DNA of 64,000 bases. It comes from Xylographa opegraphella. Lineage: Eukaryota. The notes beneath the pieces are model-generated. The model was not told where the DNA came from. It did no database searches and saw nothing but the letters and a program-made list of their open reading frames with translations. Below, one piece after another: positions 1-20,480 of the stretch. The stretch's first letter is position 1. Every line of letters begins with the position of its first letter. The position numbers and the translations under genes were made by a program. The DNA lies in the NCBI GenBank assembly GCA_022813865.1, contig JALDZX010000006.1, forward strand, positions 1 to 64,000, read 5' to 3'.

Positions 1-1479
1 CAGAGGAAGAGAAGGCCCTCGTTACGTTTCTGTTACTAATGTCTGATCTTGGGCAACCTGTTCGAGTAAAGTACATACCTTCACTAGCCTTTAGCATCGC
101 CCGCCAGCGGTCTTTCGTTACAACGGATCATTCAATCAAGCCTCCGAATAAGAACTGGCCTCGAGCCTTTGAGAAACGTAATCCTGAACTCAAAGCGAGA
201 AAGGTTCGGGCGATAGATTGGAAACGTCACGAGAATAACATATATGTGAAAATTACACACTGGTTCGAAGTAATTGGAAGAATTATACAGGATCCGGCCA
301 TTCTGCAAGAAAATGTGTACAATATGGACGAGACGGGGGTCATGTTAAGCATGCTCGGTTCCGTCAAAGTCCTTGTAGGTAAGAACGACCTACGAGACTA
401 TAGAGGCGCAGGCGTCAAGCGGACGATGGTAACTGCCATTGAATGTATAAGTGGAGACGGCAGGTCTTTGCTCCCTCTTATAATCTGGCCAGCTTCAACT
501 CACCGCAGCAATTGGACGACATACCCAACCCCAGGATGGCATTACGCACATTCAGAAAACGGTTACAACAATTCCAAAATTAGCTTGGAATAGCTTACGC
601 GTGTGTTTGATCCCCAAATCAAAGGACCAGCTAACCAGAGACCACGGGTACTAATTTACGACGGCTTCGAGACACACGAGACGCTCGAAATCTTGGAATT
701 TTACTTTGCGAATAATATTCTCCTGTGTCGTCTCCCGTCTCATACCTCTCATAAGCTCCAGCTCTGTAATGTCGGAGTTTTTGCGCCTTTGAAGACAGCC
801 TATTGCGACGAGGTTGAACAACTGTACCGAGGAGGTTTAGACACCGTTGGCAAGGAGCATTTCACCTTTTTATACAAGCCTGCAAGGGAAAGGTCGTTAA
901 CAAAGAGAAATATTATGGCCGAATGGCCGCGACTGGTTTTTCCCGTTCAATCCAGAGAGAGTACTCCGATATACACCGAAGCCCGCTGCTATACTTACAG
1001 TTCCAAAAGGTAATGAGGTCTTGTCTTACCCGCAAGACCAAGATCTACAAATGCCTGTAACCCCTGTAACGTCGGTAACAATAGAGGCTCTTACGTCGTT
1101 GCATAATCTGATTAAACAGGAGCTTGATGAGCCAAATACAGACTGTATACAAAGGCACGTACAGAAGCTCGTAAGTGCCGCCAAAGTATTATTTGCCAAA
1201 CAGACCCTCTTTTAGGATCAGAATCGATTCTTGTCCAAATTAAATAATGAAGCCAAAGTTCGCCGATCGACCAGATCAGTAGTTCTGGGAAAGGCGAAGG
1301 TGATAAGCTATAAGAACCTTGAGGAGGCACGAGCGAAGCGTGCCGCAAAAGAGAAAGCGACAGCGGATAAGGGCAGGGGAAAACGCGGGCGTAAGCGCAA
1401 AAGTCCTGCGCCAGAGGAGGGTTCGTCAGTGCCAACGGACAACGAAATGCTGGAGTCAGTGAAAGCCCCAGCGCCATAA
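1..1479 (+). mobile_element. pogo/Fot1-like (Tc1/mariner superfamily) DDE transposase, pseudogenised; 5' end lies outside the window
   Basis: Consecutive ORF fragments carry NMDETG, LIYDGF and LPSHTSHKLQLCNVGVFAPLK motifs plus a basic C-terminus (GRGKRGRKRK). TAG at 591-593 (W expected) and 1213-1215, a frameshift near 920-930, and the third catalytic Asp reads Asn (AAT 768-770). Confidence 0.9.
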
Positions 1480-1890
1480 AGGGCCCCAGTGGCACGAATA
1501 TATTAGGACAGTATTGTTGCTTCAACGTGATCTTGCGCTGGGAGTTGCATAGGCTATATAGGAAAAGAGAATAAATGCTTAACTTAGCAAATTATGGAAG
1601 AAAGCTGGGCTACAGCCAAAGCATGCTAATACACGTTTTATTGCCAGTGCCATCCAAGCCGAACAAAGAGAACATTTTATCACTATATCGAGAAGGTTAA
1701 ATGCGGAGATTGTGGCGTGGGCTCCTTTGAAACGTCGTTGCAAGTAGGTATATATAGCCAGCGTCATCGCATCGTTTTCAAGTGATACGCGGAAGGTTCT
1801 CTAGATACCACGTACATTGTTGGACAAACAGATCAAGCTGAAGAAGTCCTTAAACCACAAAGAGATTCAGATCGTTCAGTGATGCCATAC

Positions 1891-2721
1891 CTAATCGTCC
1901 CAAAAATCCTTTCCGCCATACTTGTTGCCAATAAGAGCTTTTCCATCATCATCCACCACCACGCCGTTATATATATAAGACGCCCCTACCGCCTTCCCAT
2001 ACCAGTCACTGCTAAAAATGTCACCAGCCTAAGCCTTTTCTTTAACTAATACGTTCAGGTATCGATGACCACTAAGAGCTTCTTTGGCAGCATTTTGCAG
2101 TAGGTTATCAATACCTTCTGCAACACTCTGAACTAACTCTAGGGCTCCTCGATCATGAAGTTCAGTCGCTTCCTGCCTGACCAGTAAAACCTGGGCTTGA
2201 GGAGCAGGGAATATTTTCTCGATGTTGTCAATAAGTGAAGAGATACCTTCAATAAGGCTCTTGAATTCGGATTTGCGATAAAGAGCCCATTGCGTGATTT
2301 TCAGGATATTACTCCTCTTCTATCGCTTGATAGCCAGCTCCCTCATCTTGTTGTTCAACGCTACGAAGGTTGAGTCCATACTATTACTGAAAAGAACAGA
2401 AAGGTCTTCGCCAGTTGTATACTGCTGTAAAAATTTTGCCGAATCGGCGAAAAGCATAAGGATCTGATACAATATATTTTTAACCGTCTGAATCTGTTCT
2501 GATGTCGCATCGGGCCTTCCCATTTTCGGATCGTTCAGAATATCCACAGCTTGCCCTCAACGGGTCAAACGGATTCGAGAGCAGTTCAGAGTCAGCAAAT
2601 CTATCTGATAGTCTCGCCCAAAGTGACGCCCAAACTGCACATACTCGAAGCAATCGACACAGGCCGTGAAGGCGGCAGCGATGCCGATAGTACCAACGAC
2701 GATGCCAAATGCTTTAGCCAT
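1891..2721 (-). pseudogene. HET-S-like protein: N-terminal HeLo domain plus C-terminal HET-s-type prion-forming domain; three in-frame stops
   Basis: Manual translation in one frame (276 codons): MAKAFGIVVGTIGIAAAFTACVDCFEYVQFGRHFGRDYQ...RLTR*GQAV...AIKR*K...GHRYLNVLVKEKA*AGDIFSSDWYGKAVGASYIYNGVVVDDDGKALIGNKYGGKDFWDD*. Both termini resemble Podospora HET-S (CVDCFEYVQLGRHFGRDY; IGNEYGGKGFW). Stops at 2557-2559, 2320-2322 and 2029-2031. Confidence 0.9.
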
Positions 2722-3133
2722 TACAATAGTATAACAGGGAGGTGGTTTAGCCAGACGATATGCTCTAAACAGCGAGAAGATCAGAAAATGGTTGGGTTGC
2801 TTGCTGTAAGTAAAATTGTCTGCAGGATCGCGTTTGATTGCTTCAAGGCCACAGTTGATGCCTATAAGTCTATCCCTTCTCGTGGTCGTTTAGCAACTGC
2901 CCCAAAAGTTTGCTTATTTTGTTTAATATTGACCCAAAAGACCACGATAAGGGATATCCGAGGTCCTAGCGTAGCCGTACGGTAGCCTATCACGCCAGGA
3001 CAAAGCCAGCGCGAGGCCGCTCCTACTGTAGGTCTTGTTTAAAGAATACTATATTTTAGCAGTCAAGCCGACCGGCACATCCGCCTAATTGTCAATGCTG
3101 CTTCCTACGGCCACTAACTGATCCGTCGCCTTA

Positions 3134-5183
3134 ATGGCTGATCCCTCCAGGCCAGGGAATCAATACCAGCACATCCGGATCGATCAAGGCGGGAAAGCTC
3201 AACTGGGCGATACGTACATTCTCCGTGAGCTTTGGCATCCCATCCAAGAAGTAATGTCTGCTGACATACGCACGTCTCCTTGACCAGCGGCTCCAGCCCC
3301 TTTATTACCTCCATCCTATCGACTTGGCTTAAATCTTGAAAATGCGCCGCAGATTGACGAGCAGTTCTTCATCGGACGAAAGGACGAGCTTGCTCATTTA
3401 TACGAATAGTTGTCTCCGTCAACGGAACGATAGAATATGATGGCCATCTCGGGACTCGGAGGGATAGGTAAAACACAGCTTAGTTTGCACTTTGCGCGAC
3501 AACACCATCAACGTTATTCGACGGTGATCTGGCTGAATGCCAGCAGCGAGGTCATACTAAAGGCGGTATGTCTTTCGCGCAGTGCATCCAACGCCACAAC
3601 AAGCAACGCGATGCTAGACAGAGCGAGGTAATAGTGCAATTGAAGGAAGAGCAGGCTGTTCAACTGGTTCGACAGTAGCTGTTACAAGCGGAGAATAAGA
3701 CGTGGTTGTTAATGTTCGATAATTACGATGATCCTCGGCTTCCTGGCATTCGTAGTAGTACTGAATACGACATTCGCACTTTTTTCCCCTACTCCACCCA
3801 AGGATCGATCCTGATTACGACCCGATCTTCTCGCATTACCTTTGCGAAGTCGGTGCGCCTTAACAAGTTCGATGACCTTAATCTGAGTCTGGCAGTTTTA
3901 ATAAGGCGATCGGGTCGACAGGCACACGAAGGTAAGTATATATGATTACTAGGGATCAATACCGACCTTGTATCTAACGACCTTTGTTGTTTAACCCAGA
4001 TGTAAATGCGAAGAAACTGGCGGAACGGTTTAACGGACTTCCATTAGCGTTGGCCACAGCGGGCGACTATATCAGTCAGACGACGGATTCGTTCGGTGAA
4101 TACCTTCAAATGTACGAGCAGAGCTGGGCAGACCTAGCCGAGAACAGTAATAACTTGATGGAGTACGGCGATCGAACGCTGTATTCAACATGGAATCTAT
4201 TGCTGAAGCAGGTCGCCGCTTAAGATCCTGAAGCGGCAAAGCTGATTCGGCTGTTGGGGTATCTGGGGAACACGGATCTGTGGTATAAGCTGTTTTAGAA
4301 GGGTGCAGAATCCGCGTCGGAGTGGTTCTGCAATATTACGAAAAGCAAAGCGCGATTTAATAAAGCAATGGCGACACTACACGGTTATTCGCTGATTAAA
4401 ACGATGCCGGGTTACTACAGTCTTTACGCGTGCGTGCATAACTGGGTTTTGGAGTATCTGATTGGCAAGATCGATATAACGCTGTTTGGCTTAGCGATGT
4501 ATTGTATTGCGCAGAATGTTGCTTGGGAATCTACGCCCGAATACTGGGTGGTTAACAGCCGTTTGAACCATCACGCTCTTCGAATAGAGCATTGCCATCA
4601 AAGAGACGTTGTCGATTGGAACGTTGTCGATATGGACGATATTTTTAATATATGTAATTTGAATTACATGATCGGGCGACTGAAAGAAGCGGAGGAAATG
4701 TACATGCGGGCGCTGAAAGGATATGAAAAGGCATGGGGTACGGAACACACATGGACGCTGGACACAGTCAACAACCTGGGGATTCTTTACGCGGATCAAG
4801 GCAAGATGGCCGAGGCGGAGAAGATGTACATGCGGGCGCTGAAAGGAAAGGAAAAGGCATGGGGTGCGGAACACACATCGACGCTGGACACGGTCAACAA
4901 CCTGGGGAATCTCTACAAAAATCAAGGCAAGATGGCTGAGGCGGAGAAGATGTACATGCGGGCGCTGAAAGGAAAGGAAAAGGCATTGGGTGCGGAACAC
5001 ACATCGACGCTGGACACGGTCAACAACCTGGGTGTTTTTTACGCGGATCAAGGCAAGATGATCGAGGCGGAGGAGATATATATACGGGCACTGAAAGGGT
5101 TTAAAAAGATATATGAAGCTGATCATCCACGGGTATTACTTGTAGAATCTAATCTGAGCTCGCTAACGAGTGCAAGAGATTAA
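3134..5183 (+). pseudogene. Fungal NLR (N-terminal amyloid motif - NB-ARC - TPR), with stops and a frameshift
   Basis: Exon 1 (3134-3224) MADPSRPGNQYQHIRIDQGGKAQLGDTYIL; intron 3225-3287 (GTGAGC..GCTGAC..CAG). Then FIGRKDEL, Walker A GLGGIGKT, Walker B WLLMFDNYD, GSILITTR, GLPLAL and 42-aa TPRs. Stops at 3407, 3431, 3676 and 4221; frameshift near 3570-3600. Confidence 0.9.
4689..5110 (+). repeat. 126-bp tandem TPR-encoding repeat, about 3.3 copies
   Basis: Unit starts (GCGGAG..ATGTACATGCGGGCG or a variant) at 4689, 4815, 4941 and 5067 give an exact 126-bp period with near-identical DNA. Confidence 0.95.
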
Positions 5184-5334: not shown

Positions 5335-5697
5335 TAAAGAAATACCTGGCTAGCCCGATGCACGGCAATTTAGCTGCTTGACATATATCGAGAAGCGTAG
5401 AAACCTGGATAAGCTTGAGTAAATTCCTTTGTTTCGTCGACGACGGTGTTAACGATAGGTCTATAAAGCTTTGAGGCGATGCGATGATTTGTGTTTTATA
5501 TTTAAAAAGCTTTTACCGTAGTAGTCGTACGTTGAATTGTATCACGAAGTTGTACAATAGTTGTTTCGAAAGTTGACCGCGATTCGAATGCTAAAGCGCG
5601 TTAGTTGACTTAACAACGTTAGTACACCAAGAACGCAAGTGTGGTTAGTGCACGGCCACATATTTAACAGCCACAGGCTTGGCTACTAACACACGTA
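5335..5697 (-). mobile_element. Putative 5' end fragment of a pogo-like element, inverted relative to the transposase at 1-1479
   Basis: Minus strand begins TACGTGTGTTAG at 5697, a TA/ACGT terminus like Tan1/Vader-type elements. About 335 nt later it reads VHRASQV, resembling the MDRASQVL N-terminus I recall for this transposase family. TpA-rich. Family assignment is from memory only. Confidence 0.4.
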
Positions 5698-6488
5698 AAA
5701 TACATGTAAGTTGACGATCATATAAGACGTACAAGATCGTCTCGCGCTAGCCAAATTGAGCGATCGCTTCGGTTGAAAGTACCGATTGGCTTGACGACCC
5801 TACATAAATTTGCGCGTCACAGCATATACGAGGCTGACAATGACTTCTCATTATTGTAGCGAGGTTTTGAGGCTCAAAGAAGACCCTTTTATAAGTTTAG
5901 AGTGGTAAGAGCTTTGCGGTAGTGCTGTGGAGAAGGAGGTCCGTTATGTCATGAAAGGAGGTTTTATGCAAATCAAGCTCAAAGACGACAACGCAAGCGT
6001 AATTTTCTAAATAAGCCAGTCCCGAGTATTTAGAAATGGCCATAGTACACGGCTTATACAGAAGTATGGTAAATGTCGATGTGTGCATAAAATCTGAGCC
6101 ACTTGGAATCAGAGTACCTCTCATATTTTCCGGCACAGGTGGTTTTCCGCCACCCATGGAGGGACGTTAACAGTAATTTCGTTGGTCGGATCATGGGAGT
6201 GGCAGAAGGCTCGGTCGTGCATATAACGACCTAGGGTGTAGATGATTTACAAAATGCTAGAATTTCCAAGTACTTCGCTCGAATGAATGTGTATGTATCT
6301 CCTCAGTACAGGTTCAACTGGGCCAAATAGTCCAAGGCACAAAGCTTCCTTCTCACCTCCTCCGGACACCGTTTCACAACAGAGGACCGTAGCAAAGGAT
6401 TTGTGGCGATATACTCTACGGATGGCTCAATGATTGATCATTGAGCCGTCTTGCAGAGCCCAGTCAGAGACTTTCAAGAGGTATTCCG

Positions 6489-7422
6489 TCACCATGGTAG
6501 TGGACTACCATCATAAGCAACAAATTTACCGGAGCTGTTCTCTCGAGACGCTCCGTCGATCTATAGCGAGAAAGAGAGCAAGTCAGTAACCAATCTGATG
6601 ATGGAACTGACATCATCTTTGACACTCACCAGTGTGACCATGCCGTCGATGGAATCTTTCAACACAACAGGTGCCTCCGTTAGGCCATTCGCTCGAGCTC
6701 CGGCATTGCCCATGTCAGTCTGGACCCACCTGTCGACAACAACTGTTAGCTGACGGTGCATAAATTTAGAGCTGGAACAAGCAAACCCAGGATGCAGAGG
6801 GAAGACAGTCAGCTGAGGATGCTCGTTATGGATCTTGAGCACTATGAAATTGGCGGCTGCTTTAGAAGCGCCATATGCTGTGATAGCCATGGGGACTTGT
6901 TCCATGTAACCCATACTGGCTATAGCAGTGGAGATCAAGATGAACTTTGGCTTTTGTGAAAACTGTAGCAGTGGCCAGGTGGCTTGAAACAAGACCAGAG
7001 TTCCAATGGTATTGACATTAATATGATCTCGTAGTTCAGAGATGGGAGTTTCCAACGCCGGTCCAAAATATTTCGCAATCCCGGAGTTCGCTACAACGAT
7101 ATCGAGATGATCAATGCCATGCTCTGATTTCAAAACTTCGACTGCTGATTTCGCGTCTGTCTCGGAGAGGCTGTCCACTTTGACGACGACGAGTTTGCTG
7201 CCCTCACCCACAGTAATCGAGCTTAGACTCTTAGAGGTATCATTGGAAGGGTCGCGGACTCCAGCGATGACTATTGAGTTCGGACGCGAGAGAAATAGTT
7301 CTAGAAGACCACGACCAAGTCCTAGCAGTATCATCAGTTCCAAAGCCACAGTTGTAAGATCGTAGCAACGTCTGCTGACCTCTATTGGCGCCTGTGATGA
7401 AGTAAATAGTTTTGCTAGACAT
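6489..7422 (-). CDS. Short-chain dehydrogenase/reductase (Nor-1-like ketoreductase family), 4 exons
   Basis: MSSKTIYFITGANRG|LG cofactor motif, VANSGI, YGASK (YxxxK), HPG|WVQTDMG, C-terminus GKFVAYDGSPLPW*. Confidence 0.88.
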
Positions 7423-8973
7423 TTCGAAAACCAACTCTAGATCTTGGAACAGTAGGGTTCAATGAATAGTCAATAACGTTTAGATTTATTAAGAAATTGT
7501 AGGAGACGAATAACTTCTTGAATCTTATGCAAGAACTCTCGACATGTTCACGAGGGCTTTATACAATGCCCTGTACCGAGACTTATTATTTGAGGCATTT
7601 CACAAAACTCCTCAAAAGGGGTAAAACTTAGAAAGCAGGCAATTTGTCAGTCACCATTTGGCTGCTGCTGCAACCTTCGTCCATACCAGTTTCTTCCATT
7701 ATTCAGCTGCCCAACAGAATTAGAATTGAGCTTGGAAATCACATATCGCTTTTCGGAGCTCTTGCCACCCGAATTAGGATGTAGCTCCTCGTCCGAGGGT
7801 CGTTTGCGACTTGACGCTAGACGAATACGGGCTGAGCTGCTCAGCTGTCATATTCTTGCACTAGTTTAGTTTTAGCCTAATCAGGTAATTTCTGGGTCTA
7901 TGGCGCGAAGCTAGAATCGGATGGCGCCTTGGATGTGAGACGATTATCAATCTTGCACTCCTTCAGTCATCCCACACTGACAGAAAGACGTTCTACAATT
8001 GGCCAGTTCCAAGTTGGACTCGGACTGTCATTCTTCTGCAAATACTCATCAGATTGCCAAACTCGTATCCTGCCGAACGATGAGTGGTGGAACAGTTCTG
8101 GCCTGCCGAGGATTGTCGTGTTCTGCATATTCTTGGTTAACCAGACATGGTGCATGATGTGAGGAAACTCATTGATTAGGCCGTGCGCATCTCAATGCCG
8201 AACTGTATAAATATCTTCCGTAGCGTGCGAAAGGCTTTCTATGTCAGATTGTTTGTCAGAGCATCTTCATTCACCCATCTAGAAATTCTTATGGAAGCAT
8301 TCGTCTCATCCATCCCACGTCACAACACATTAATTACTCCAATTCTAATTATATCTCCATAGCCGATTAATGATCATCCTTTCCTTTTTATTTGCAGCAT
8401 AAGTGCATACTCGTTGCAATGCTTGACCTCTCGCGCTAGGATCCCTTCTTAACAACCAATTCTCTCGTATGTGACAGGGGCTTCCGATATCCAGAGGAAG
8501 AACATGATTTTTCATGTCTCGGCACCCATCATCTCCACTGTTGCAGCCCAGCGCTGGGGAGCGAGCTCTTGCAACGCTGCGGTAGATGAAAGCATGGTGT
8601 GGTAGGTCTTCCTCGTAAGTGATACGGTAGATCGATAAAGGAGCTGGCAATGTTTGCATCCCAAAGGAAGTAAAGCTTCGTGCAAGTTTCACTTGCAGTG
8701 CTTCATCTCGAAGACGATGTTAACGATTGGCCATATCCTGGCATTCAGTACATTGTACTGACCAATGACAATCTCACGACTAATCGCTGTGGCCCAGAAG
8801 AATATGACGATATCCGAGCTTCTCACGTGCGTCGACCAGCGTCCTGAGTTTCGCAGGAGGCACAAAGTGTCCAAGGGAGTCAGCCAACATCATCGGTAAG
8901 ACTGAACCAACATCAAGATTGACCTGTACCCAGGCGGATGCGACTTTTCTGGGCTCGCTCAAGACGGAAAGCA

Positions 8974-10801
8974 TTACAAGTCCATGATCTCGCTGGCAAA
9001 TTTGCTCCCGGCGCGAATCCTCGGTCCATAAAAGATCAGTACCCATGGCACGATTGTTAAAAGCGCACCCACACCACCCAGGAAGCTCGACGCCCCAGCA
9101 AAGGTCATACGATTGAACATCGCAGTGGTGATGAGCGGGAAGATCCCGCCGAGCATGTTTCGACAGAAAGACTGCGCAGCAAGCGCAGAGCTGGCATAGC
9201 GGTGATACGTATCGGCAAGGTAGTTGAAAACGGCAAGGTAGATGGAGAAGATGCCCATGGTGGCGCAAGCTATTGCCATAGCGGGCACGATCCAGGGGAT
9301 TTGAGAGAATTGAGTCCAGCCAAACCAGAAGAGGCCGATGGGGAGAAGAGCCGACTCGATGCATGAAAAGTAAAGTCGGCCTTCCGGGGTGGAGGACAGC
9401 TTGCCGTAATGCTTTGCGATCTTCTCTTGGTAAATGGAGAGGAGCGTAGATAGGATTGAGCCAACGCAGATGGCTGGGAAATCGTGTCAGCTTGAAGACA
9501 ATCACGATGTCGAAAGGGCACGTACCAGCGAAAACCGCACCATTCTGTTGCAGATCAAAGTGGTGGTTAGCGGTGAAGACCAGCGGTATCGAGCTAAAGG
9601 TAAGGTACAGGACAGCCCAGCTGAATGAAACCCAAAGCGAAAAGAAGAACACTACAGGTTCTGTGGCCAATAAATCTGTGTCTCCGTTAGCAGAGTCGAT
9701 GATATTCCCAAGTATATGACACTTACGAAATGGTCGATATAGCGATATTCCAATCATCTTAGCTAAACTCTCTCTAGCTTCATCAGACTGAACTTTCCAC
9801 CTAATTCTCTGGCTTTGCAGCTTGCTCCCATCATCGCCAACAGGCATATCGAAGCCGAACAGCCCAGCTCCTTCTCTCGCTTCGTACCACTTGTTCAATA
9901 TTTGTGCTTTTCTACTCAGTAGTACACTTCCTCGAGTTTCTTTGAAAAATACAATCACAGCAAGAATACACAAGCCGCAACTGATCACTTGATGCCAAAA
10001 TACCCACCGCCAATTCACATTTTGAGCGATGAATCCCGAACACAGTGGCCCTAGTCCGGTTCCAAGAAGCGCAGCTCCTGCGAACAGCGCCATGGGTGTG
10101 TTCCTGTCTTCGGCATGGAAGATGTCACTCACAACGCCTCCAACCATGGTCGAAAATGTAGAACCGCCGACGCCAACGAAAAACCTAGCCACGAGCATTC
10201 CAGCATACGATTGGGTAACAGCACAGCATATCTGACAAATCACAAACAGGATACCGGTCGCCACAAAAACAGGATACCGCCCATTGATCTCCGAGAAGGG
10301 TGCCAGAATCATCGGAGCAATCCCAAAGCCGGTAGTGAACATTGTGATTCCCACGTACATGGCCTCTTCACTGACGTTCCATTCAGCAGCCATGGCGGCA
10401 GAGGCGGAGGAATACGAGCCCGCCGTGTATGCTGTCACAATGGTAGATACGCACGAGAGCCATAATATCAGAGTTTTTCGAGACTGTGACCAATTGAAGG
10501 GTGACTGGTAATTGCGGAGATCGGGAGCTTCGGGAGCAAGTCCCTCGTTTGTGCCGGAAGAGGTCAGCGTGGATGGCGAAGGGAGCTCGGTGTCGAATGT
10601 AAGATAATGGTAAACGATTGGCGCATGGCCTTGATCAGCTGTAGACCTGCGTCCATTTTTCTCATTGCCTTCGTCAGGAGCATAGCTTCTCTGATCTCGT
10701 ACAATTGGAGTATAATTGTCTGCTGCTCGTGTATTAGGGTTTTCTTCGGCATCAACAAATTCCGATGACGTCGGCGGAAGTCTTGTTTCCAGGCGAGCCA
10801 T
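8974..10801 (-). CDS. MFS drug:H+ antiporter (DHA1-like), multi-exon
   Basis: SPFNWS..K, APFSEINGR, WRWVFW, ETRGSVLL, RPF|HLL.TEP, NYLADTYHRYASSALAAQSFCRN. Confidence 0.9.
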
Positions 10802-11451
10802 TATTACAACAACACGATCCTTAACGATTGTTGCAATTCATCAGTATACTCGAAAGTAAAACAAACAGAAAAAGTCTTGATCTATGTGAAAGGCAGAAGA
10901 AATTATTTGTTAAGTGTATCAAATAAATAACTGATAGTCTGCTTCGGCTCCACCACGGAAGGAAGCCGTTGATCCACATCCGTATCGGTGCCGATCATCC
11001 AGCTTGACCACTAATAAAGCGCGTACCGTATCGAGATCCGCGCTCCTTCCGCAATCGGACCGCGCTTGAAGAGGTTGATCAGTGGTGGTTACAGACGCCG
11101 GAGAATGAGTAGCGCTGCATGGTTCGGTTTACGGATCCTATCGAGACATGCTGGAGACGAAATTTTGAATTTTGATGTTTTTCATCTGGTGTCCTTGCCT
11201 CAGTACTGAGGAAACTGCTGTCCAATGTTCAGCCGGCTTTTCCCATGATCATTACATATACTCAACTTCAAGGTTGCATTTAAGAGCTGATAGATTCCTT
11301 TCCGTTCCCGTTCATATATTTCCAAGAAATCAAAATCCTTCGTCTGCTTTTGCATTTATAGAAGGTTATTTTGGAAAGAAACCTCATCTAGTTCCCGAAT
11401 TCTAAACTCTCCGCCAGCTCTTCACAGCAGTCACCAGTTCAGATTTGAACC

Positions 11452-13173
11452 ATGTCAACAATGCCCGGCCTACCCGGCGCTCCTCCTATCCTCTCCACTC
11501 CAGACACACATATCTTCGAGGACCCTACCCCCTCGACCAGCACCAAAACTCCCAGAAAATCAACGGAACGAATCGCCCTCATCTACGAGATCCACCGCAC
11601 CATTGCCTCCATTCGTCAAGCTCGATACCGCCGCATTGCCCTACAGTTTCCCGACTCCATGCTCCCTGATGCGCCTCGTGTGTTCGAGGCGCTTCAGCAA
11701 GGACTGAAAAGTCCCGCTCCACCTCGGAGGCCAGATGCGCCGGACCGGCGGACCACGGACCAAGTTGTGGATGAGATGCTGGACCTACAGATCTCGGCTC
11801 AAAATGAGAAATTGCCCGAGGAGCGTCTCTACATCCTAGCTGATACGTCGTATGGTGCGTGCTGCGTCGATGAGATTGCCGCGGAGCATGTGGAGGCTGA
11901 TGTTGTGGTGCACTATGGACGAGCGTGCCTGTCGCCCACCGCGCGGCTGCCAGTGATCTATGTTTTCACCGAGCAGCACTTGCCTGTTGAGGGGGTGCTG
12001 GCAGCGTTTCGAGAGACCAACCCGGACAGGGGAGAGAGAGTCATCCTCATGGCTGATGTTACATACGCTAGCCATCTCACTGGGATAGAAGAGCGGTTGC
12101 GGGAGGAAGGGTACGCGAATCTGTTCACCACAGCGATCATGCATGATCCATCATCACCGCTGCCAAACCGCACGGTACCGGAGGAGGTATGCCAAGATCG
12201 CGAGAGGTTGAAGGAGTGGCGTCTTTTTCATATTGCGGAGCCACCGCAGGCCCTGCTTCTGACGCTGAGTTCGAGGGTGGCTGATGTGCACATCTATCCG
12301 ACCTTACAAGCAGATCTCTCCCATCCACAACAAACGCTCTTGGCTTCTACATCTCTTGCACTGCGTAGACGCTATGCCCTACTCACCTCGCTGAGTACGG
12401 TACCAGTCTTCGGCATTCTTATCAATACGCTGAGTGTCAAGAACTATCTGCACATCGTCGAGCACGTCAAGGCGCAGATCCTTGCGGCCGGCAAGAAAAG
12501 CTATACCTTCGTGGTGGGCAAAGTGAACGCCGCGAAAATTGCCAACTTTAGCGAAGTGGGTGGGTGGGTGGTCATTGGATGTTGGGAAAGCTCGCTGGTC
12601 GAGAGCAAGGATTTCTGGAAGCCGGTGATCACGCCATTTGAGCTCGAGCTCTCATTGAAAGGGGATGGAGAAAGGGTATGGACGGGTGAATGGAGGAGTG
12701 ACTTTCAAGGTATTCTGGATGGGGACCTGAAAATCAACGGTCGCGCTGATGAGATGCTTAATGGGAGTGGTCTTATCAGCGGTATAGACGTTGATGCCAA
12801 TGGTGGTGAGCTTGACTCGGAGCCCGAATCCGCACCTCCGGAATTCGACCTGCGCACGGGAAGGTATATATCGCATTCTCGGCCTATGCGAGGACATAAA
12901 TCTGAGCAAGAACTAAGTAACGGAAGCAAGGACGGCCTCGGAGGACCAAGTGATGCACTGATGAGACGCGCTAGAGGTGACCTGGCCGTAGTTGGCGGGG
13001 AGATATCACCTGGGGCCGAGTTCTTGCGTTCGAAGCGAACGTGGAAGGGGTTGGGTAGTGATTTGGAGATCGCATATGATGAAGGTGATGCCCAAAGCAG
13101 TACAGCTGTTGAGGAGGGACGGAGTGGTATAGCTCGTGGTTACACGCTTGGCGATGCTACCGACAAGCGATAA
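11452..13173 (+). CDS. DPH2: Diphthamide biosynthesis protein 2
   Basis: IALQFPD, LYILADTSYGACCVDEIAAEH, VVGKVNAAKIANF, FLRSKRTWKGL, EEGRSGIARGY; 573-aa ORF. Confidence 0.93.
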   Translation: MSTMPGLPGAPPILSTPDTHIFEDPTPSTSTKTPRKSTERIALIYEIHRTIASIRQARYRRIALQFPDSMLPDAPRVFEALQQGLKSPAPPRRPDAPDRRTTDQVVDEMLDLQISAQNEKLPEERLYILADTSYGACCVDEIAAEHVEADVVVHYGRACLSPTARLPVIYVFTEQHLPVEGVLAAFRETNPDRGERVILMADVTYASHLTGIEERLREEGYANLFTTAIMHDPSSPLPNRTVPEEVCQDRERLKEWRLFHIAEPPQALLLTLSSRVADVHIYPTLQADLSHPQQTLLASTSLALRRRYALLTSLSTVPVFGILINTLSVKNYLHIVEHVKAQILAAGKKSYTFVVGKVNAAKIANFSEVGGWVVIGCWESSLVESKDFWKPVITPFELELSLKGDGERVWTGEWRSDFQGILDGDLKINGRADEMLNGSGLISGIDVDANGGELDSEPESAPPEFDLRTGRYISHSRPMRGHKSEQELSNGSKDGLGGPSDALMRRARGDLAVVGGEISPGAEFLRSKRTWKGLGSDLEIAYDEGDAQSSTAVEEGRSGIARGYTLGDATDKR

Positions 13174-13427
13174 GTCTGTAGACGCAGTATCGGAACATAA
13201 TTCTTCCGCTATTGAGCTCCAATCCCATTGCAATCAGTGGTTGTTTCTCGATTTGAGAACAACTCCTCATCTTGATGATGGGATATCCGTAAGCATAGGC
13301 TTCAGGAAGTATGTGCAAGTCATTGCCTGCAGTATATCTGGTCGAGGCTTCCGCTAGACTCTGCCCCTCACTCTCCACAGCGACACATGTACTTTGGAGT
13401 ACACAAAACGGTAACGGGTCAAGATTT

Positions 13428-14385
13428 TCACCACTTTCTACCTACAAGACGTTCGAAAGCTTCTCTATACTTCTCGGCAGTTTTGTTCATGACATCTTCT
13501 GGCATTTCGACGCCTTGCTTTCCCTTAAGCCCGTTAGCCGTCAGCCAATCGCGCAGATACCTGCACTAATTCAGTATTGCTCAATAGGACCTTAAGCTGC
13601 AAGACTCACTGCTTGTCGAAGCTTTCTTGTGTCTGACCAATCTTATAGCTTGAAGCCGGCCAAAAGCGGGAAGAATCAGGTGTCAAGACCTCGTCTACCA
13701 ATACTACCTCGTCAGTCTCGGTATCCAGACCGAATTCGAATTTGGTATCGGCAATGATGATTCCACGTTCCAGGGCATATTTTCGAGCAGTGGAGTATAG
13801 TTCCAATGCAAGCTTTTCAATCCGTTCCGCATACTTCTCCCCGACGATTTCGGCAGCCTGATCGGGATGTATGTTCTCGTCGTTCAGTCCTGCTTCGGCC
13901 TTGGTACTTGGAGTGTAAATGGCTCCCTGAGGGAACGCTTCGCTCTCGGTCAGGCCTGGTTGGACTTTCATCCCGTGTACTGTGCCTTTGGTCTGATACT
14001 CCTTCCAAGCACTACCAGTAATATAGCCACGTACGATAGCTTCAATAGGAAATATTTCAAGCTTCCGTACTTGCATACTCCTGCTTTGTAATCGCGCTCG
14101 GAATTCTTGAGGAACTTGTTGTGGTAGATCAAGAGAGATAAAATGTGTTTTGAGGCTTGGTATAGCAGAAGATAAAACATGGAACCAATGAGCAGATAGA
14201 AGAGTCAATAGAGCTCCTTTCTCAGGAACACCATTTTTCATAATGACATCGTAGGCAGAAATGCGGTCTGATGCTACAAATAAGAGTGTCCGGGAATCGA
14301 TCTCGTAAAGGTCGCGGACTTTACCGCTCGCCAGCAATGGAAGAGTTCCAATTAGTTTGGACTCTGTGGAAGAAATGACCGTCAT
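13428..14385 (-). CDS. ADE1: SAICAR synthetase, 2 exons
   Basis: SGKVRDLY, SDRISAYD, EAIVRGYITGS, ADTKFEFG, DEVLTPDSSRFW, SFDKQ|YLRDWL...LVGRKW* after an intron at about 13561-13609. Confidence 0.95.
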
Positions 14386-14898
14386 AGCTTAGTGCCTCGC
14401 AAATGGTTGATTCTGCAAGTGCTCGCTACGCTTTCACGATCTCGCACGAGAGCGAGTACTCCGTACGATCAAGACACGAACATCAGTCAGATTCCAGTAT
14501 GGTACTCATGTGCAAAGACAGATAGATGGTTCTCTATTATGCGACCTGTGGAAAATGCCATACGATCAAGATGCTGGCAAGAGGCGCTAGTAGATGAGCA
14601 TTGGGCTATGCCGTTATTGTACTAGCTCAGTAGGATCCGCGATTTGAGTCAAAGTAAACAAAACACCACTTTCACAACAGTCGCATTTTCTCTGCATTAC
14701 TTTGGGTTCGCGCCTTGCTGGGACTGACATGAACATGGGGATACAATACTGTTGGACTCTCTATTGAATGCTGTTCTAGTATTCTGCTTCACATTGGTAT
14801 TGGCGGTTACAGAATACTAACTGCTGGTCACTAACACTGCTTTACAATTCTTACACTGGTAGCTAACTTCGACCAATATTGCAACCTACATATCAGAT

Positions 14899-17800
14899 AT
14901 GGCGCAGTCTCCAAGCTCTGATCGCCGCGCTCAATTGATTCGAGAGATGTCAAGAGACCTGAACAGGACACGCCCATCATCGAGATCATCTAGAGGATCA
15001 AATGTTAACGCCGAATCAACAACATCTGACTTTGACCCCGAAAACGAAGCATTGATGTCAACGCGACAACTAGAAAGTACTACACAACGACTCCCCGAAC
15101 TACGGGCTAGTGCACAGAAATATGGCCGCTACTCTCAACCTGAACCAGATTTTGCGATAAATACATCTGCAATTGGGAGAGCATTCCCCGATTTCTCGCA
15201 AGGCGGCAGCTCCTCTGAAGACGAAAGTATGTCTATAGAAATCGGGAGAGGACTACCAAAGAGTAATAATGAGAATGATGCGAAAGCGGGACGGTCAAGA
15301 GATTTCTCTTCAAATATCGGAGGGAACAGCATGGAATTTTCCCCTGCCATGGTCGGTAACTATCAGGTCATGAGCACACCACCCAAACGACCATTCCAAG
15401 CTACAAAGAGATCTACGAACACACCCAACGACTCTCTACGTCGAAATGCTCAAGTCCGCCGTGCTTCCACAATTCAACAAAAGACAACAGAACCATCTCC
15501 TCCTGCCGCAAAGACCACAGATTACGTATCTGGATCGAGCAGACAGGGTAACGCAGACAATCGTCGTACTCTCAGCTCGATGCATGCACGTGTTGCAGAT
15601 GAGGATGCTGCCTCTGATGTAAGCGAGGATCGCCCTCAGACATTGAATTTAACTGCGAGGAACACAAGATTCGGTAACGGTCGCAACGGAACTATAACTT
15701 CAAATAATCACTTGCCATCTAAGTTTTCCTCGACCAAAAGGTTTGTTGATGCAATTGTTCAAGGACAAAGTGTAGATCAGAACATCATGAAAGGTCAACA
15801 CAACAATGCCACAACATCGTCCGGGAATCCAGGGACCCAGCAATCTTTCATACTTCCGGACATGCCTAACATGTCGGAACTGGTCTCTGGCGTTTTCCAA
15901 GATGGTACGCCTGTTTTTTCTAGACATGGCAAGCCCCGAGCCTCCCGTTTTGCATCTGGAGCCCATTCACAGCGAGGCAAAGAATATGTTGAAGTAGCCG
16001 GTATAACTGTTCCAGACGAAGAACAAGCCATATTCGTTTCTTTGAAACTTCTGCAGGATAAAGTGGCTGATTTAGAAAATGCAAAGGCTGAAGCCCAAGC
16101 TACTGTGCATGAACTGCAAGAGAAGAATCTCGTTCTCGAGCGCGAAAAACAGGAATTCAAGCGGTTTAGGAGAAGTGATAGTGCACTCGGTACGACGGAT
16201 GGAAGTGATGGAGCTGACGAGTCAGGTCGAGGTCCACGAAAATGGATCATCGAAAAAACTCGTGAGCATACCAGATTTACATAACAAGAGTATAGACTGA
16301 CTGCAACACAGGACTCGAGTCCAGTATTCGAACATTACAAGAACAAGCAAGCACTGCCATGCACAAGAACTCTGTGCTGGAGATTACTATCAGGAATCTG
16401 ACACAAGAACGTGACACAGTAGTTTCGCAGCTAGGTGTAGCCTATCTCACTACTGAGCAACTGAAGGTAGAGAACGAGAGGCTTGTTGAGGCGAATACGC
16501 ATCTCAGTGATGAGATAGCTCGATTGGGGAGTCATGAGGAGACTCAATCCAAAACTCGTGCGAATAGATACCAGGGGAAAAATGGACGACGAAGTCAAGC
16601 TGATCAAGAAGCCTATGATATGAGCCAGATGTCCACAGAACCTCATGGATTGGACCTGATGCTGGCCCAGGATAACATTATCAGAAAGCCGTCGCGCAGG
16701 GAGAGTGTTCTGGGAAATCAAGCAGAACAGGCCACAATAGCCGCTGGGAATAAGAAGTCTCTTGAGCCAAATGCTCGGAGTGGATCGAATAACAAGTCCA
16801 AAGGAATTTCACAAGCATCCAATAGAGTTGAACCTTTGTATTTCGATGAAGAGCCCAGCACACGTAAGGTCAAGAAAACAAGAATGGTTGTCGAGGAGTA
16901 CTCTGAGAGCGAAGCCACCGATGATTCAGTCAATGAACCCATCATCAAACCACAGACTCATGGTCTTGGAGTTCCAGAAGCTGAAGGTGCTACAACGGGA
17001 GATATAACCTTCTTAAGTTTTCTAGAAGTAAGTTGTTAGTTTCGGTGTTTATTTTCATCCACTAATGTAAGTAGAATGGAGAAATCGCCAAACTGCGAAA
17101 GACACTGGAGCAAGAGCGTATTGCTCGAAAACAGCGACTTGGACAGAGCAACAATACTTTGCAGCCAAAACCTGCTAATACGAAACCGTCCGACTCAGCG
17201 CCTCTGCCGAGAAAATCGTCCATGAAGGACTTGTCTGCGCGGTCCGGCAATCGAGTAGATGAAACAATCCATACCCAGCACAGCTTTGACCATGTAACTA
17301 CTGTAGATGCTGAATCCCCGAATATAGAGCTGACTTTCTCGAAGACTACGCAAGCCAAACCACCAAAAAGCCACAATCGCCTCTACTCCGAGCATTCTCT
17401 CCTGGAGCAACGTAACCAGCGTGACGGGATTGGTATGGACGATATGACTTCCGCCTTCATCGTACCTGATATAACCATGAGAAACCCCATTATGACTGGC
17501 GGAGGGTTCCAAAACATGCCAGCATCTGCTCAACAGACTTCAAACAATCCTCCCGAACACGATGGGCAGAATTGCACAGTCTGTAAGCACGTAATCGAAA
17601 AAGGGTCTTCACACAATCATGGCGAGACAGTGAAGGGAACTGTCAAGATCCCGAAACCTATACCAGTGTCTGACCGTATGCCCGAAGCTGGCCCATACGA
17701 AGAAGAGCCTACTATACGTCCTTCACAGCCACCACCTGTAGCACTCGCAGCTGTTATCAAAGGTCTCGAGGACGAGCTTACACATTTGAAAATACAGCTT

Positions 17801-18199
17801 TCGCAATACCAGTCTCTATATAACCAGCATGATCCAGCCTTGAGTAAGCGCAAACGGAAGTCTGTCCTCGCAAAAATTGAGAAAATGACGCAAACTGTGG
17901 ATATCAAATCCGATCAGATCTACGCTCTTTATGACGTGCTAGAAGGACAAAAAGCCGATGGTCACGAGATCAGTGAAGAGGAAGTCGAAATTACCTTGCA
18001 GTCCGTGGGCATCGACCTGGGAGGATTGGGTCTTCGAGGCGGAGACTTGTCGGAAAACAGCAACCAAAAAGAAGAGCATGTTTGGGATATTGATAGTAGC
18101 GACGAGAGCGAAGGAGATATGCCTTGGGAAGGCATCGAGACAACAGTCGACCTAACCAAAAGGAGTGGCGAGTCGAGAAGGCGAAGCTGGGGTGCTTGA
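14899..18199 (+). CDS. ppc89: Ppc89/Cep57-like spindle-pole-body coiled-coil protein with C-terminal microtubule-binding domain, 3 exons
   Basis: Low-complexity N-terminus, central coiled coil (IFVSLKLLQDKVADLE) and C-terminal PTIRPSQPP..ALAAVIKGLEDEL...KSDQIYALYDVLE, which I recognise as Cep57_MT_bd-like. Introns near 16262-16310 and 17028-17074. Confidence 0.75.
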
Positions 18200-18386
18200 G
18201 CGAGGTGTATAAGCTCATAAAAGTAAGGACGACTGATCGGCCATGCCCAAAGTAGAAGCATGGCGTTGGGGCGTCCGATTCTTCGATTTCAACCACATGT
18301 ATTACTTCACGACATCACCGACCACACCGAGCGTCTCGATGCAAGACATCCTTCCGTTCGGATCCGCGTTGGGACAGCCACCACCT

Positions 18387-18740
18387 CTGGCCTAGATCAC
18401 AGTGTTGACTGACTTCGGTGCATGTCCACTGTTCTACCAGCGAAGAAGTTTCCGACCGGATTTCCTAATCTCAATTTACCGTCATACCTGAACATCAACC
18501 ATAACCGCTCAACTCTTCTCTCGTCGTCAATAGCCTTTCCTTCCGCTTTCTTCAGATTGGCGTGATTCGTGTTGACTGACTTCTGTGTATGTCCACGATT
18601 AAGCTCAATTCGGAGGCAAATGGTGAGAAGAGCCATCTCGACGATCGAATTGGTGCGCAGTTTCGGAACAGAGATCTAGCTTGTTGGGGACTATCCTCGT
18701 ATTGACTGACTGCGGTGCATGTCTGCGATTTGATTTCCCC
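18387..18740 (+). ncRNA. Three copies of a bulged hairpin RNA motif (putative 3'UTR cis-element)
   Basis: Core GTRTTGACTGACTNCNGTGYATGTCYRC at 18402-18429, 18569-18596 and 18699-18726. Each folds with a tetraloop (UUCG, UUCU, UGCG) and its own complementary lower stem. Confidence 0.7.
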
Positions 18741-19202
18741 TCATGCTGGACATCTGATATGTGGTTTCCTGTTGCAAAGCGAGGGTTTGAGTGGGTGGAG
18801 ATGGAGTGCTGGATGAGTCTTGCTACTTGTGCGTTCAATGGGGTTTTTGGTTATGATTTCGGCACGAGACTTTCTTTTCTCTTTGCTCCGTAGGCGTTGG
18901 ATAGGGGGTCCGATGCATTAGGTCAGCGGATGTTGAGAGCGTTTGATTACTGGATGACTTGATGAGTTTAGCTGGTCCACAAATTAGAGGTTCTTGATCA
19001 TTGGCTTGATTCAAAGGTGAGACGGCTCTCGTGCTATATATGCTATATAACTCCTTGCAGGAGAAGCATTGAATGTAAACATGCCATATTGGCGGGTATC
19101 ACATGTAATTCCCAACGCCGTGTCTTCCTCGCCATGCCATACCGAGCTTTGCTTTTTTATACGCCGCGCTATTCAAAATGGTTTTCCAGATGTATAATGC
19201 GT

Positions 19203-20480
19203 CTAGGTATCGTCGTCGCTCATGTCGATGTCACCCTCCGTTGCGGCAGCAACAGCAGCACCAGCAGTAGAAACTGCCTTTTCGTCCCCCAGACCTCGCG
19301 ATGTAGCCTTCTCGTCCGCGATGAAGCAACAGAGCCCGGCATTGCCCTCCAGCATTGCTCGAGCGTAGTATTCCTGGACGTCGTATCCTCCCGCGGTGAT
19401 GACAGGATCGTTCCTCGCATTCTCCAGCCAGGGATGTTCGGAATACGTCTGTAGCGAGTAGTAGAGAGTGTCCATACTCATGCCGCCGAATGGATCGTAT
19501 GGCTTCTGCTCCTCCACAACGACAGGGGCTTTGAGCCCTCTGATCATGAATGACGGGTCCGCCGCACTATTGCCGTTGCCGGTGTCGAAAGGATCTTTGC
19601 TCAGACCCATCTTGTGTTCCAAGCCCTGTTGCTGCAGCCGTGCCTTCTCCACCGCCGACCGTCGTGCTGTGCTTTTTTTTAGCACTACCTTTTGACTTTG
19701 CCGTAGGAAATCTTCCGGGCCCGCCTTCCCGGCTGCGACTAGCTGCGTGAATTCCCGCCGGCCCGCTTCTCGTGCTTGCTTCTGGTCTTCTTCCTCCTTG
19801 CGCGCTGCTTCGCGCGACAACCGCGAAATCTCGCGCTGGGCGGCCTCCCACTCTTCAAGCGAGCTGTGCTCCTGAATTGCGAGCACCGCGTTCTTACCGA
19901 TCGAGGCAGAGTTCTCGGCCGAGTAGGCGGCCAGCTTGGCTTCCGTAGCGGCGACGTCGACACGCTCGATCAGGTTGAAGGTGATGTCTTCTTTAAACTC
20001 AAGATAGTCGTTGTAAGCACGTAGGGAGGTGAACTCGTCTTCACGGCGGTTGAAACTACAGAAGCCTCTTATCAGCACTATGCTTCACGGCACGAGCATA
20101 TATGACAAGGTCAATCCGACATACATCTTCTCTATGCGTGCCCGGATATCACACTCCCGCTCCACCTTCAAGTCCTCAAAGGTCTGCCTCCTGAACCTCG
20201 CCTTCCGGAGAGTCCGCCCACAGCCTGCAATCGGACAAGGCGCCGGGCCTTGGGAGAAGATACGGTCGACGCAAGATTCGCACATGCGGTGGTAGCACTC
20301 CGGATTGATGAGGAAGCGCATCTTCGGGTTGAGGTAGCGGGAAGACTTGCATACTGGGCAGATTTCTGTGGGCCCGTCAGCGAAGGGCTTCGATGGAAGG
20401 AGGGAGAGGTGCAGAGCATTCAGATGGGTATGAAGCTCACCGTCTGCGTCGCCAGACCTGGGGATTTGCGTTTGGGCCAT
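19203..20480 (-). CDS. TFB3: TFIIH/CAK assembly factor MAT1 (RING), 3 exons
   Basis: CPVCKSSRYLNP.MRFLINPECYHRMCESCVDRIF..GPAPCP..GC, FEDLKVERECDIR, FNRREDEF..LRAYNDYLE, AGGY. Confidence 0.95.

Follow-up and report, generated by a model that had tools for sequence, protein, structure and literature searches.

A RIP-like mutated pseudogene copy of an HRAM3 HeLo/NLR amyloid-signalling gene pair in a lichen-forming fungus

The first 64,000 nucleotides of contig JALDZX010000006.1 of Xylographa opegraphella (assembly GCA_022813865.1, forward strand; hereafter the window) contain, at 1891-5183, a head-to-head pair formed by an effector gene of the HET-S type and a gene for a NOD-like receptor (NLR), which carry copies of one HET-s-related amyloid motif (HRAM). 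The locus is a pseudogene copy of an HRAM3 HeLo/NLR amyloid-signalling pair with mutations like those that repeat-induced point mutation (RIP) leaves; the signalling mechanism would operate, by analogy with known systems, in its intact relatives. With a probability of about 0.7, we read it as a dead HRAM3 pair of the HET-S/NWD2 type that bears a RIP signature, with duplication as the most likely trigger and the closest relatives in the Teloschistaceae. The features of the pair are as follows.

1891-2721, minus strand: HET-S-type effector pseudogene, single exon, 276 codons plus the natural stop at 1891-1893
about 2134-2706, minus strand: HeLo domain of the effector
2017-2073, minus strand: effector repeat r1, residues 217-235
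between r1 and r2, minus strand: linker of 11 residues
1921-1983, minus strand: effector repeat r2, residues 247-267
1894-1920, minus strand: C-terminal tail YGGKDFWDD of the effector
2557-2559, minus strand: premature stop TGA, effector codon 55; W in 15 of 15 aligned orthologues
2320-2322, minus strand: premature stop TAG, effector codon 134; Q in 15 of 15 aligned orthologues
2029-2031, minus strand: premature stop TAG, effector codon 231, r1 motif position 17; Q in 13 of 15 orthologues and L in two
2722-3133: divergent intergenic region, 412 bp between the two ATGs; length varies among relatives
3134-3224, plus strand: first NLR exon (30 codons and one further nt, ATG at 3134), free of damage
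3152-3214, plus strand: r0 amyloid motif in NLR exon 1, residues 7-27, GNQYQHIRIDQGGKAQLGDTY
3225-3287, plus strand: NLR intron 1, 63 nt, with GTGAGC 5' end, CTGAC branch site and CAG 3' end
3288-3931, plus strand: NLR exon 2, N-terminal part of NB-ARC, with Walker A GLGGIGKT at 3452-3475
3410-3412, 3431-3433 and 3676-3678, plus strand: premature stops in NLR exon 2
3566/3567, plus strand: net 4-nt deletion in NLR exon 2, where two more residues are encoded in relatives
3932-3999, plus strand: NLR intron 2, 68 nt, with GTAAGT 5' end, CTAAC branch site and CAG 3' end
4000-5183, plus strand: NLR exon 3, C-terminal part of NB-ARC, helical linker and TPRs; natural stop at 5181-5183
about 4647-5160, plus strand: TPR_10/TPR_12 repeats of the NLR
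4224-4226 (TAA) and 4296-4298 (TAG), plus strand: premature stops in NLR exon 3

An earlier note had described the region as a two-gene amyloid module that controls cell death. Its account of the sequence is accurate in all particulars, namely the two pseudo-repeats, GGKDFWDD, the 30-codon exon, the distance of 412 bp and the stop in the first repeat, the one lesion of the two genes that it records. As for the module, the homology of the effector to HeLo/HET-S and the adjoining NLR with its single repeat stand. However, both genes are disrupted, the effector by three premature stops and the NLR by five stops and a net 4-nt deletion, and because of this multiple damage the window copy is not a working module.

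Domains and amyloid motifs

The effector frame is continuous apart from its three in-frame stops. Matched to Pfam with X placed at the stops, it yielded the HeLo domain (PF14479) at residues 6-196 with E=4e-41 and 141.5 bits (cut-off 23.2). The profile of the effector family retrieved from PDB the HeLo structures of HET-S/HET-s (2wvo and 2wvn, E about 1e-59), as well as the amyloid chains of HET-s(218-289) (2kj3 and 2rnm, E=0.0036), the latter over r2 plus the tail. An AlphaFold2 model of the orthologue P0003, made with 108 aligned sequences (mean pLDDT 83.8), resembles 2wvo in its HeLo part (E=1e-14, TMt 0.88) and draws r1 and r2, over residues 220-236 and 250-268, as two beta rungs whose strands follow one pattern. 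With 2rnm, the prion-domain part of this model gives a weak Foldseek match (rank 36, E=0.56, TMt 0.40), which is compatible with the identity of the prion domain without being evidence for it. By sequence, the effector is a genuine homologue of HET-S; its HeLo domain is directly homologous, in fold as well as in sequence, to that of Podospora HET-S.

In the published description of HRAMs (PMC4518210), the motif is 21 residues long, with R or K at position 15, G at position 19 and a hydrophobic residue at each of positions 5, 8, 10, 16 and 18; two copies, separated by a loop of 6-18 residues, follow a HeLo domain and are closed by an aromatic/diglycine tail. The class HRAM3 has H at position 3. 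All the general features are present in the effector, including a loop of 11 residues and the tail YGGKDFWDD. Positions 5, 8, 10, 16 and 18 are occupied by Y, V, V, A, A in r1, by Y, V, V, A, I in r2 and by Y, I, I, A, L in r0, and K15 and G19 are found in all three. The mark of HRAM3, H219 of r1, is shared by the window and all 15 orthologues. At the same position, r2 of the window has Y as a result of a C>T change, where all 15 orthologues have H (H249), and r0 has N, likewise found in the published r0 of row KFZ24429. Another altered position is 12 in r1, with E in the window and G in the consensus. By the H-at-position-3 criterion, and not by the labels of the published rows, the module is assigned to HRAM3. 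The earlier note had held that the subfamily could not be told by eye.

That one motif is common to all three repeats, as had been proposed, is confirmed both by scoring and by the recurrence of the arrangement. In ungapped register, r0 and r2 of the window have a BLOSUM62 score of 28, with 6 of 21 positions identical; shuffled r2 sequences (14,000 shuffles pooled over seven loci, mean -18.2, standard deviation 9.95) reached a score of at least 28 in a share of 7e-5. When the 1,970 peptides from all six frames of the window were ranked by a hidden Markov model (HMM) built from 104 distinct r2 motifs of homologues, r0 was the top non-self match; since the E-value is just 0.35, this test is weak on its own. 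The recurrence across loci described below is the stronger argument for the motif match. The residues G8, N9, Q10, Y11, I14, I16, D17, G19, A22, Q23, L24, G25, T27 and Y28 of exon 1 are invariant in 10 of 10 aligned sequences. Co-folding of two r0 copies (P0259, residues 1-32) with residues 208-276 of P0003, by a tool that left the alignments unused, had a score of 0.01 against a mark of 0.34 and speaks neither for nor against their pairing.

Exon 1 of the NLR encodes MADPSRPGNQYQHIRIDQGGKAQLGDTYIL. It is joined in frame to NB-ARC if intron 1 is spliced, and reading through the intron leads to a TGA at 3284. The NB-ARC fragments of the window score 20.1 and 13.8 bits, below the Pfam cut-off of 23.5, because the region is broken up; the intact 687-residue orthologue P0136 scores 50.5 bits. 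The TPR matches are strong, with 123 bits for TPR_10 and 111 bits for TPR_12. The read-through of the NLR is colinear with P0136, at 85% identity over residues 1-123 and at 76% over the rest, which aligns to residues 126-637 of that protein. Taken together, the window fragments and P0136 have NB-ARC with Walker A followed by TPR repeats, that is, the NLR-type architecture. Stops are absent from two parts of the gene, the r0-bearing exon 1 and the final 294 codons, which contain the TPRs (4299-5183). Three TPR units of 126 bp at 4686-5098 have a mutual DNA identity of 88%, and depth in the sequencing runs is several-fold higher over 4700-4947; internally conserved repeats are known for fungal NLRs (PMC5485727). 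The intergenic region 2722-3133 presumably contains a shared promoter.

Related loci and known systems

Among 1,183 candidates, 265 proteins matched the effector at E<=0.001. The best orthologues (276-280 residues, 76-87% identity) come from metagenome-assembled genomes (MAGs) of Teloschistaceae, from the genera Gallowayella, Flavoplaca, Variospora, Xanthoria, Wetmoreana and Gyalolechia; they are followed by Leotiomycete and Dothideomycete proteins with 55-64% identity. Intact orthologues with the same arrangement, which the earlier note had recommended looking for, do exist: the effector and the NLR have consecutive locus tags in three MAGs (Q9205_006093/4, Q9178_008093/4 and L6R40_008347/8). 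A metagenome scan gave 64 related loci, and in two of them, L001 and L024, as well as in these MAG gene pairs, the effector again stands head to head with an NLR carrying a single r0. Orthologous pairs occur across the lichen fungi of the Teloschistaceae. A regular-expression search, in which divergent r0 motifs may be missed, found r0 upstream of the effector on the opposite strand in 10 of the 25 loci with at least 500 nt of upstream sequence, and in two more with a shorter flank. Among the NLR relatives, 10 of 16 have the r0 motif at the start, and six have other N-termini or are cut; P0136 also starts with r0.

The splicing of intron 1, on which the link between the motif and NB-ARC had been made to depend, is predicted in gene models of intact homologues. 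In nine orthologous gene models, all of them automatic predictions, r0 is joined to NB-ARC in every case; the exact junction 3224/3288 is used in four and a later acceptor in two, and three models run into intron 1 before splicing. The treatment of this motif-bearing 30-codon first exon in three ways by automatic gene models calls for caution in annotation. The splice signals and the branch site of intron 1 are kept in L024 and L001; in L001, a 2-nt indel lies within the intron, and the indels of exon 1 are multiples of 3.

Receptors with NB-ARC were found in L001 and L024 and in P0136, where TPR was seen as well. Receptors of the NACHT type (NPHP3_N) are present in L006, L008, L022, L025, L056 and L057, the last with WD40, and a receptor with ankyrin repeats in L021. 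The effectors of these seven loci belong to the same orthogroup, are 40-63% identical and stand head to head with r0-bearing receptors. In six of the seven, the frame of r0 differs from that of the next long open reading frame (ORF), which fits an intron directly after r0. The paralogous NB-ARC proteins P0243, P0249 and P0250 contain the exon-2 sequence of the window from its first residues (APAPPLPPSYQLGLN...), preceded by other N-termini: the Pfam Ses_B motif in P0243 (27.6 bits, above the cut-off), an unnamed leader of 60 residues in P0249, and a domain of about 290 residues without a Pfam name in P0250. These N-termini suggest that the signalling module may have been exchanged at the intron.

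Some of the related loci are themselves altered. L024, with 88% DNA identity to the window, has two frameshifts in the effector (L024:6001-6826), which are possibly assembly errors, and a truncated NLR, the homology ending at window position 4188 (L024:4723-5770). In L002, the effector is intact, and the equivalent of window 2825-4010, with r0 and the 5' part of NB-ARC, the P-loop half of the NLR, is lost (L002:5248-5900). L001 has an intact effector ORF and an insert of about 2.6 kb between the two genes (L001:2042-4693).

The closest known system is HET-S/NWD2 of Podospora anserina (HRAM1, with a NACHT-WD40 receptor), which shares with the window pair the divergent neighbouring genes, an effector in which the pore-forming HeLo domain precedes a prion domain of two repeats and a C-terminal aromatic loop, and a receptor with one N-terminal repeat and no other effector domain (PMC4344463; PMC3321046). 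Unlike it, the window pair has a receptor with NB-ARC and TPR, belongs to HRAM3, with H and not N at position 3 of r1 and r2, has a 2-residue gap in r1, and consists of pseudogenes. By analogy with the Podospora model, the NB-ARC/TPR receptor of an intact version would oligomerise upon activation and gather its N-terminal r0 repeats into a beta-solenoid-like amyloid nucleus; this nucleus would serve as the template for r1/r2, the prion domain encoded by the adjacent effector gene, and the HeLo domain of that effector would then insert into membranes and cause cell death.

In the following comparison, Arthroderma otae and Microsporum canis are taken to be one organism; Arthroderma belongs to the Eurotiomycetes and the Teloschistaceae to the Lecanoromycetes. 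In A. otae and A. gypseum, a HeLo effector adjoins an NB-ARC-TPR protein of the STAND class (signal transduction ATPases with numerous domains) with a homologous N-terminal extension (Daskalov et al., 2012; PMC3321046). These pairs are similar to the window pair in that a HeLo protein with a C-terminal extension resembling a prion-forming domain lies beside an NB-ARC/TPR receptor, whereas the Arthroderma extension, unlike that of the window, is described as distinct from the HET-s prion motif (PMC3321046). The replacement of NACHT/WD40 by NB-ARC/TPR, proposed in the earlier note, had already been described for Arthroderma. The row Micca1_8381 of Microsporum canis in the 2015 dataset has the same tail as the window effector (PMC4518210).

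Two of the orthologues are listed in supplement file 2 of that dataset (Daskalov, Dyrka and Saupe, 2015; PMC4518210): P0086 of Amorphotheca resinae is row Amore1_33010, and P0090 of Oidiodendron maius is row Oidma1_134549. Both rows have the r1 gap, the 11-residue linker and the YGGKDFWD(D) tail of the window effector. Row KFZ24429 has an r0 that agrees with that of the window at 13 of 21 positions. The published rows are intact genes, unlike those of the window. Teloschistaceae are not among the species in Table 1 of the same paper, where Cladonia grayi is the sole lichen fungus recognised.

Origin of the damage

Substitutions were polarised by counting the sites at which the window alone differs, from L024, L001 and L002 in the effector, and from L024 and L001 in the NLR (3127-4188). 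The effector has 35 C>T/G>A changes, 6 T>C/A>G changes and 8 transversions, and the NLR has 47, 12 and 5, respectively. At the same sites, the ratio of C>T/G>A to the reverse in the L024 lineage is 12:12 in the effector and 21:10 in the NLR; pooled, GC>AT changes and their reverse amount to 82:18 in the window against 33:22 in L024 (Fisher p=0.004). Of the 82 GC>AT changes in the window, 44 (54%) are in the CpA context, compared with 27% expected (chi-square p=4e-7). Derived changes are more numerous in the window than in L024: the effector has 49 compared with 29, and the NLR has 64 compared with 41. At all eight premature stops the orthologue residue is W, Q, C or R, and each stop is therefore one transition away. 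This substitution pattern looks like that of RIP.

Neutral decay of ordinary pseudogenes after the loss of selection, with the GC>AT excess due to the usual mutational bias and not to RIP, is an unlikely alternative, although it agrees with the RIP indices of both genes, which are under the usual thresholds, and with the lesions of a non-RIP kind in related loci, such as the frameshifts and the truncated NLR in L024 and the missing NLR 5' half in L002. It does not predict that every stop is explained by a single transition, that the transition asymmetry is significantly above that of sister lineages at the same sites, that CpA sites are hit at twice the expected frequency, or that the window lineage has accumulated more changes than L024 in both genes. 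RIP acting on repeats has been reported in Xanthoria genomes (10.1101/2025.11.25.690456), which, judging by the best matches, belong to the same fungal family. The regions described there are large, exceed 4 kb, are rich in AT and are filled with transposons (10.1101/2025.11.25.690456). In the window, the effect is mild and the target is a gene pair. The GC content of the region is 45-49%, and if RIP acted on the gene pair, its effect was mild.

Duplication is the most likely trigger because a less mutated second form of the locus is found at equal depth in the best-matching sequencing run. This run, X1, has 89% of the region's sampled words and is possibly the source of the window itself. It contains contigs identical to the window (0 differences, depth 165-180) and contigs of a second form, which are 6-9% different and have a depth of 164-196. 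Over all the X1 sequence compared, the window has A/T where the second form has G/C at 130 places, and the opposite is the case at 56. The second form has CAG at 2029-2031, and the four nucleotides at 3566/3567 are present. Under the RIP reading, the module would have been duplicated, and the twin in the window would have been hit by RIP with the inactivation of both genes; spill-over from the adjacent transposon could be an alternative or additional trigger.

A metatranscriptome from another study and habitat, run X18, has the letters of the second form at every listed place covered, at 1950 in part of the depth; the depth is 10-30 over the effector gene and zero over 2840-3583. Its contig skips 53 nt directly behind the effector stop codon (window 1838-1890, minus strand, GT..AG), which suggests an intron in the 3' untranslated region of a transcribed relative. 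Since X18 carries both the letters of the second form and a spliced intron, sequence of this type appears to be transcribed somewhere, DNA in the RNA library being an alternative.

The two forms in X1 could also be alleles or haplotypes of one polymorphic locus, from two individuals or nuclei, with the window representing a null allele of a het-like locus that persists in the population. Their equal depth would be accounted for in this way, lichen samples can contain more than one fungal genotype, and the similar locus of Podospora is described as a het locus. Nevertheless, we consider this improbable to a high degree. The contigs of X1 total 31 million letters, approximately the genome size expected for one fungus, and two genomes with 7% divergence would give more. 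The divergence of 6-9%, mostly by one-directional transitions, is unlike that of balanced alleles. Moreover, paralogous NLRs are encoded in Gallowayella cf. fulva (L6R40_008348 and L6R40_008222) and Flavoplaca limonia (Q9205_006094 and Q9205_007369), and paralogous effectors in Flavoplaca austrocitrina (Q9198_009004 and Q9198_009668). That the module is functional, its stops being bypassed or due to assembly or sequencing errors, is hardly credible despite the stop-free r0 and the 294-codon TPR array, given eight stops and a 4-nt deletion within about 2.7 kb of exon, X1 contigs that match the window with no difference (perhaps the same data), and the alteration of key motif residues at r2 position 3 and r1 position 12.

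Several observations weigh against a RIP-inactivated duplicate of an HRAM3 pair. First, the classical RIP indices TpA/ApT and (CpA+TpG)/(ApC+GpT), with usual thresholds of at least 0.89 and at most 1.03, are 0.77/1.34 in the HeLo gene, 0.75/1.14 in the NLR and 1.01/1.00 in the neighbouring transposon remnant; they are not beyond the thresholds in either gene and are borderline only in the remnant. Second, of the two Pfam models proposed in the earlier note as a check, HeLo matched and HET-s_218-289 (PF11558) did not, at E<=10, with either the 59-residue C-terminus or the whole effector; in the 2015 HRAM set, the latter model matches 38 of 155 double-motif proteins and misses 117 (PMC4518210). 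Third, locus-specific co-variation of r0 and r2 is absent in the seven pairs compared, the mean score being 31.7 for own pairs and 33.0 for crossed ones. Fourth, there is no second copy of the module within the 64-kb window, the second form was read at two of the nine defects, and the presence of both forms in one genome is inferred from the equal contig depth and the small total of the run. Finally, amyloid formation by HRAM3 motifs is predicted from homology.

Genomic surroundings and implications

3-1500, plus strand: DNA transposon remnant of the Tc5/pogo type (DDE_1, HTH_Tnp_Tc5), interrupted by in-frame stops and running off the left end of the window

The transposon remnant matches Pfam DDE_1 with E=6e-14 at 594-1013, with weaker matches at 3-593. 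About 390 bp separate it from the effector gene's 3' end, the homology to related loci ending at 1626, and it is a possible source of RIP. Beyond the two genes, flank similarity was found only between window 5695-6172 and L024:7418-7808 (67% identity, opposite relative orientation). This stretch is located beyond the 3' end of the NLR in the window and beyond that of the effector in L024, which could mean that the module has been inverted or that the stretch is a dispersed repeat. The rest of the window, 6561-20084 and beyond, contains what look like ordinary single-copy genes and is no NLR or transposon island; among them are genes for an SDR (6561-7436), MFS transporters (one at 8780-10837), diphthamide synthase (11449-13173), SAICAR synthetase, Cep57-like, MAT1, Rif1 and Ric8 proteins, aldehyde dehydrogenase and a P450 reductase-like protein. 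A WD40 ORF at 57550-58902 was considered as a second NLR and rejected, as there is no NACHT or NB-ARC ORF beside it and it looks like an ordinary WD-repeat gene.

The mechanism is not new. HeLo proteins beside NB-ARC/TPR receptors with a shared extension have been known since 2012, and catalogues of HeLo/HRAM effectors and their matching NLRs have existed since 2015, so that this kind of system, including the receptor architecture, was already described. Among the lichen fungi of the Teloschistaceae, the HRAM3 module occurs widely and in synteny, and has been degraded repeatedly, in independent events in the window, L024 and L002. We propose tentatively, and at somewhat less than even odds, that Teloschistaceae turn over such modules by duplication and RIP, the window copy being the inactivated twin of an HRAM3 pair that is still expressed, and that the conserved intron after r0 is an exchange point at which one NB-ARC/TPR framework can change its signalling label. 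The latter idea is based on the paralogues sharing exon 2, whose N-terminus is r0 of HRAM3, a motif of the Ses_B type or a domain of about 290 residues, and on the single effector orthogroup, which is served by receptors with NB-ARC/TPR, NACHT (with or without WD40) or ankyrin repeats. The locus may be a case in which genome defence by RIP has silenced an immune or cell-death gene pair after its duplication, and, if so, it would bear on the expansion and contraction of NLR repertoires.

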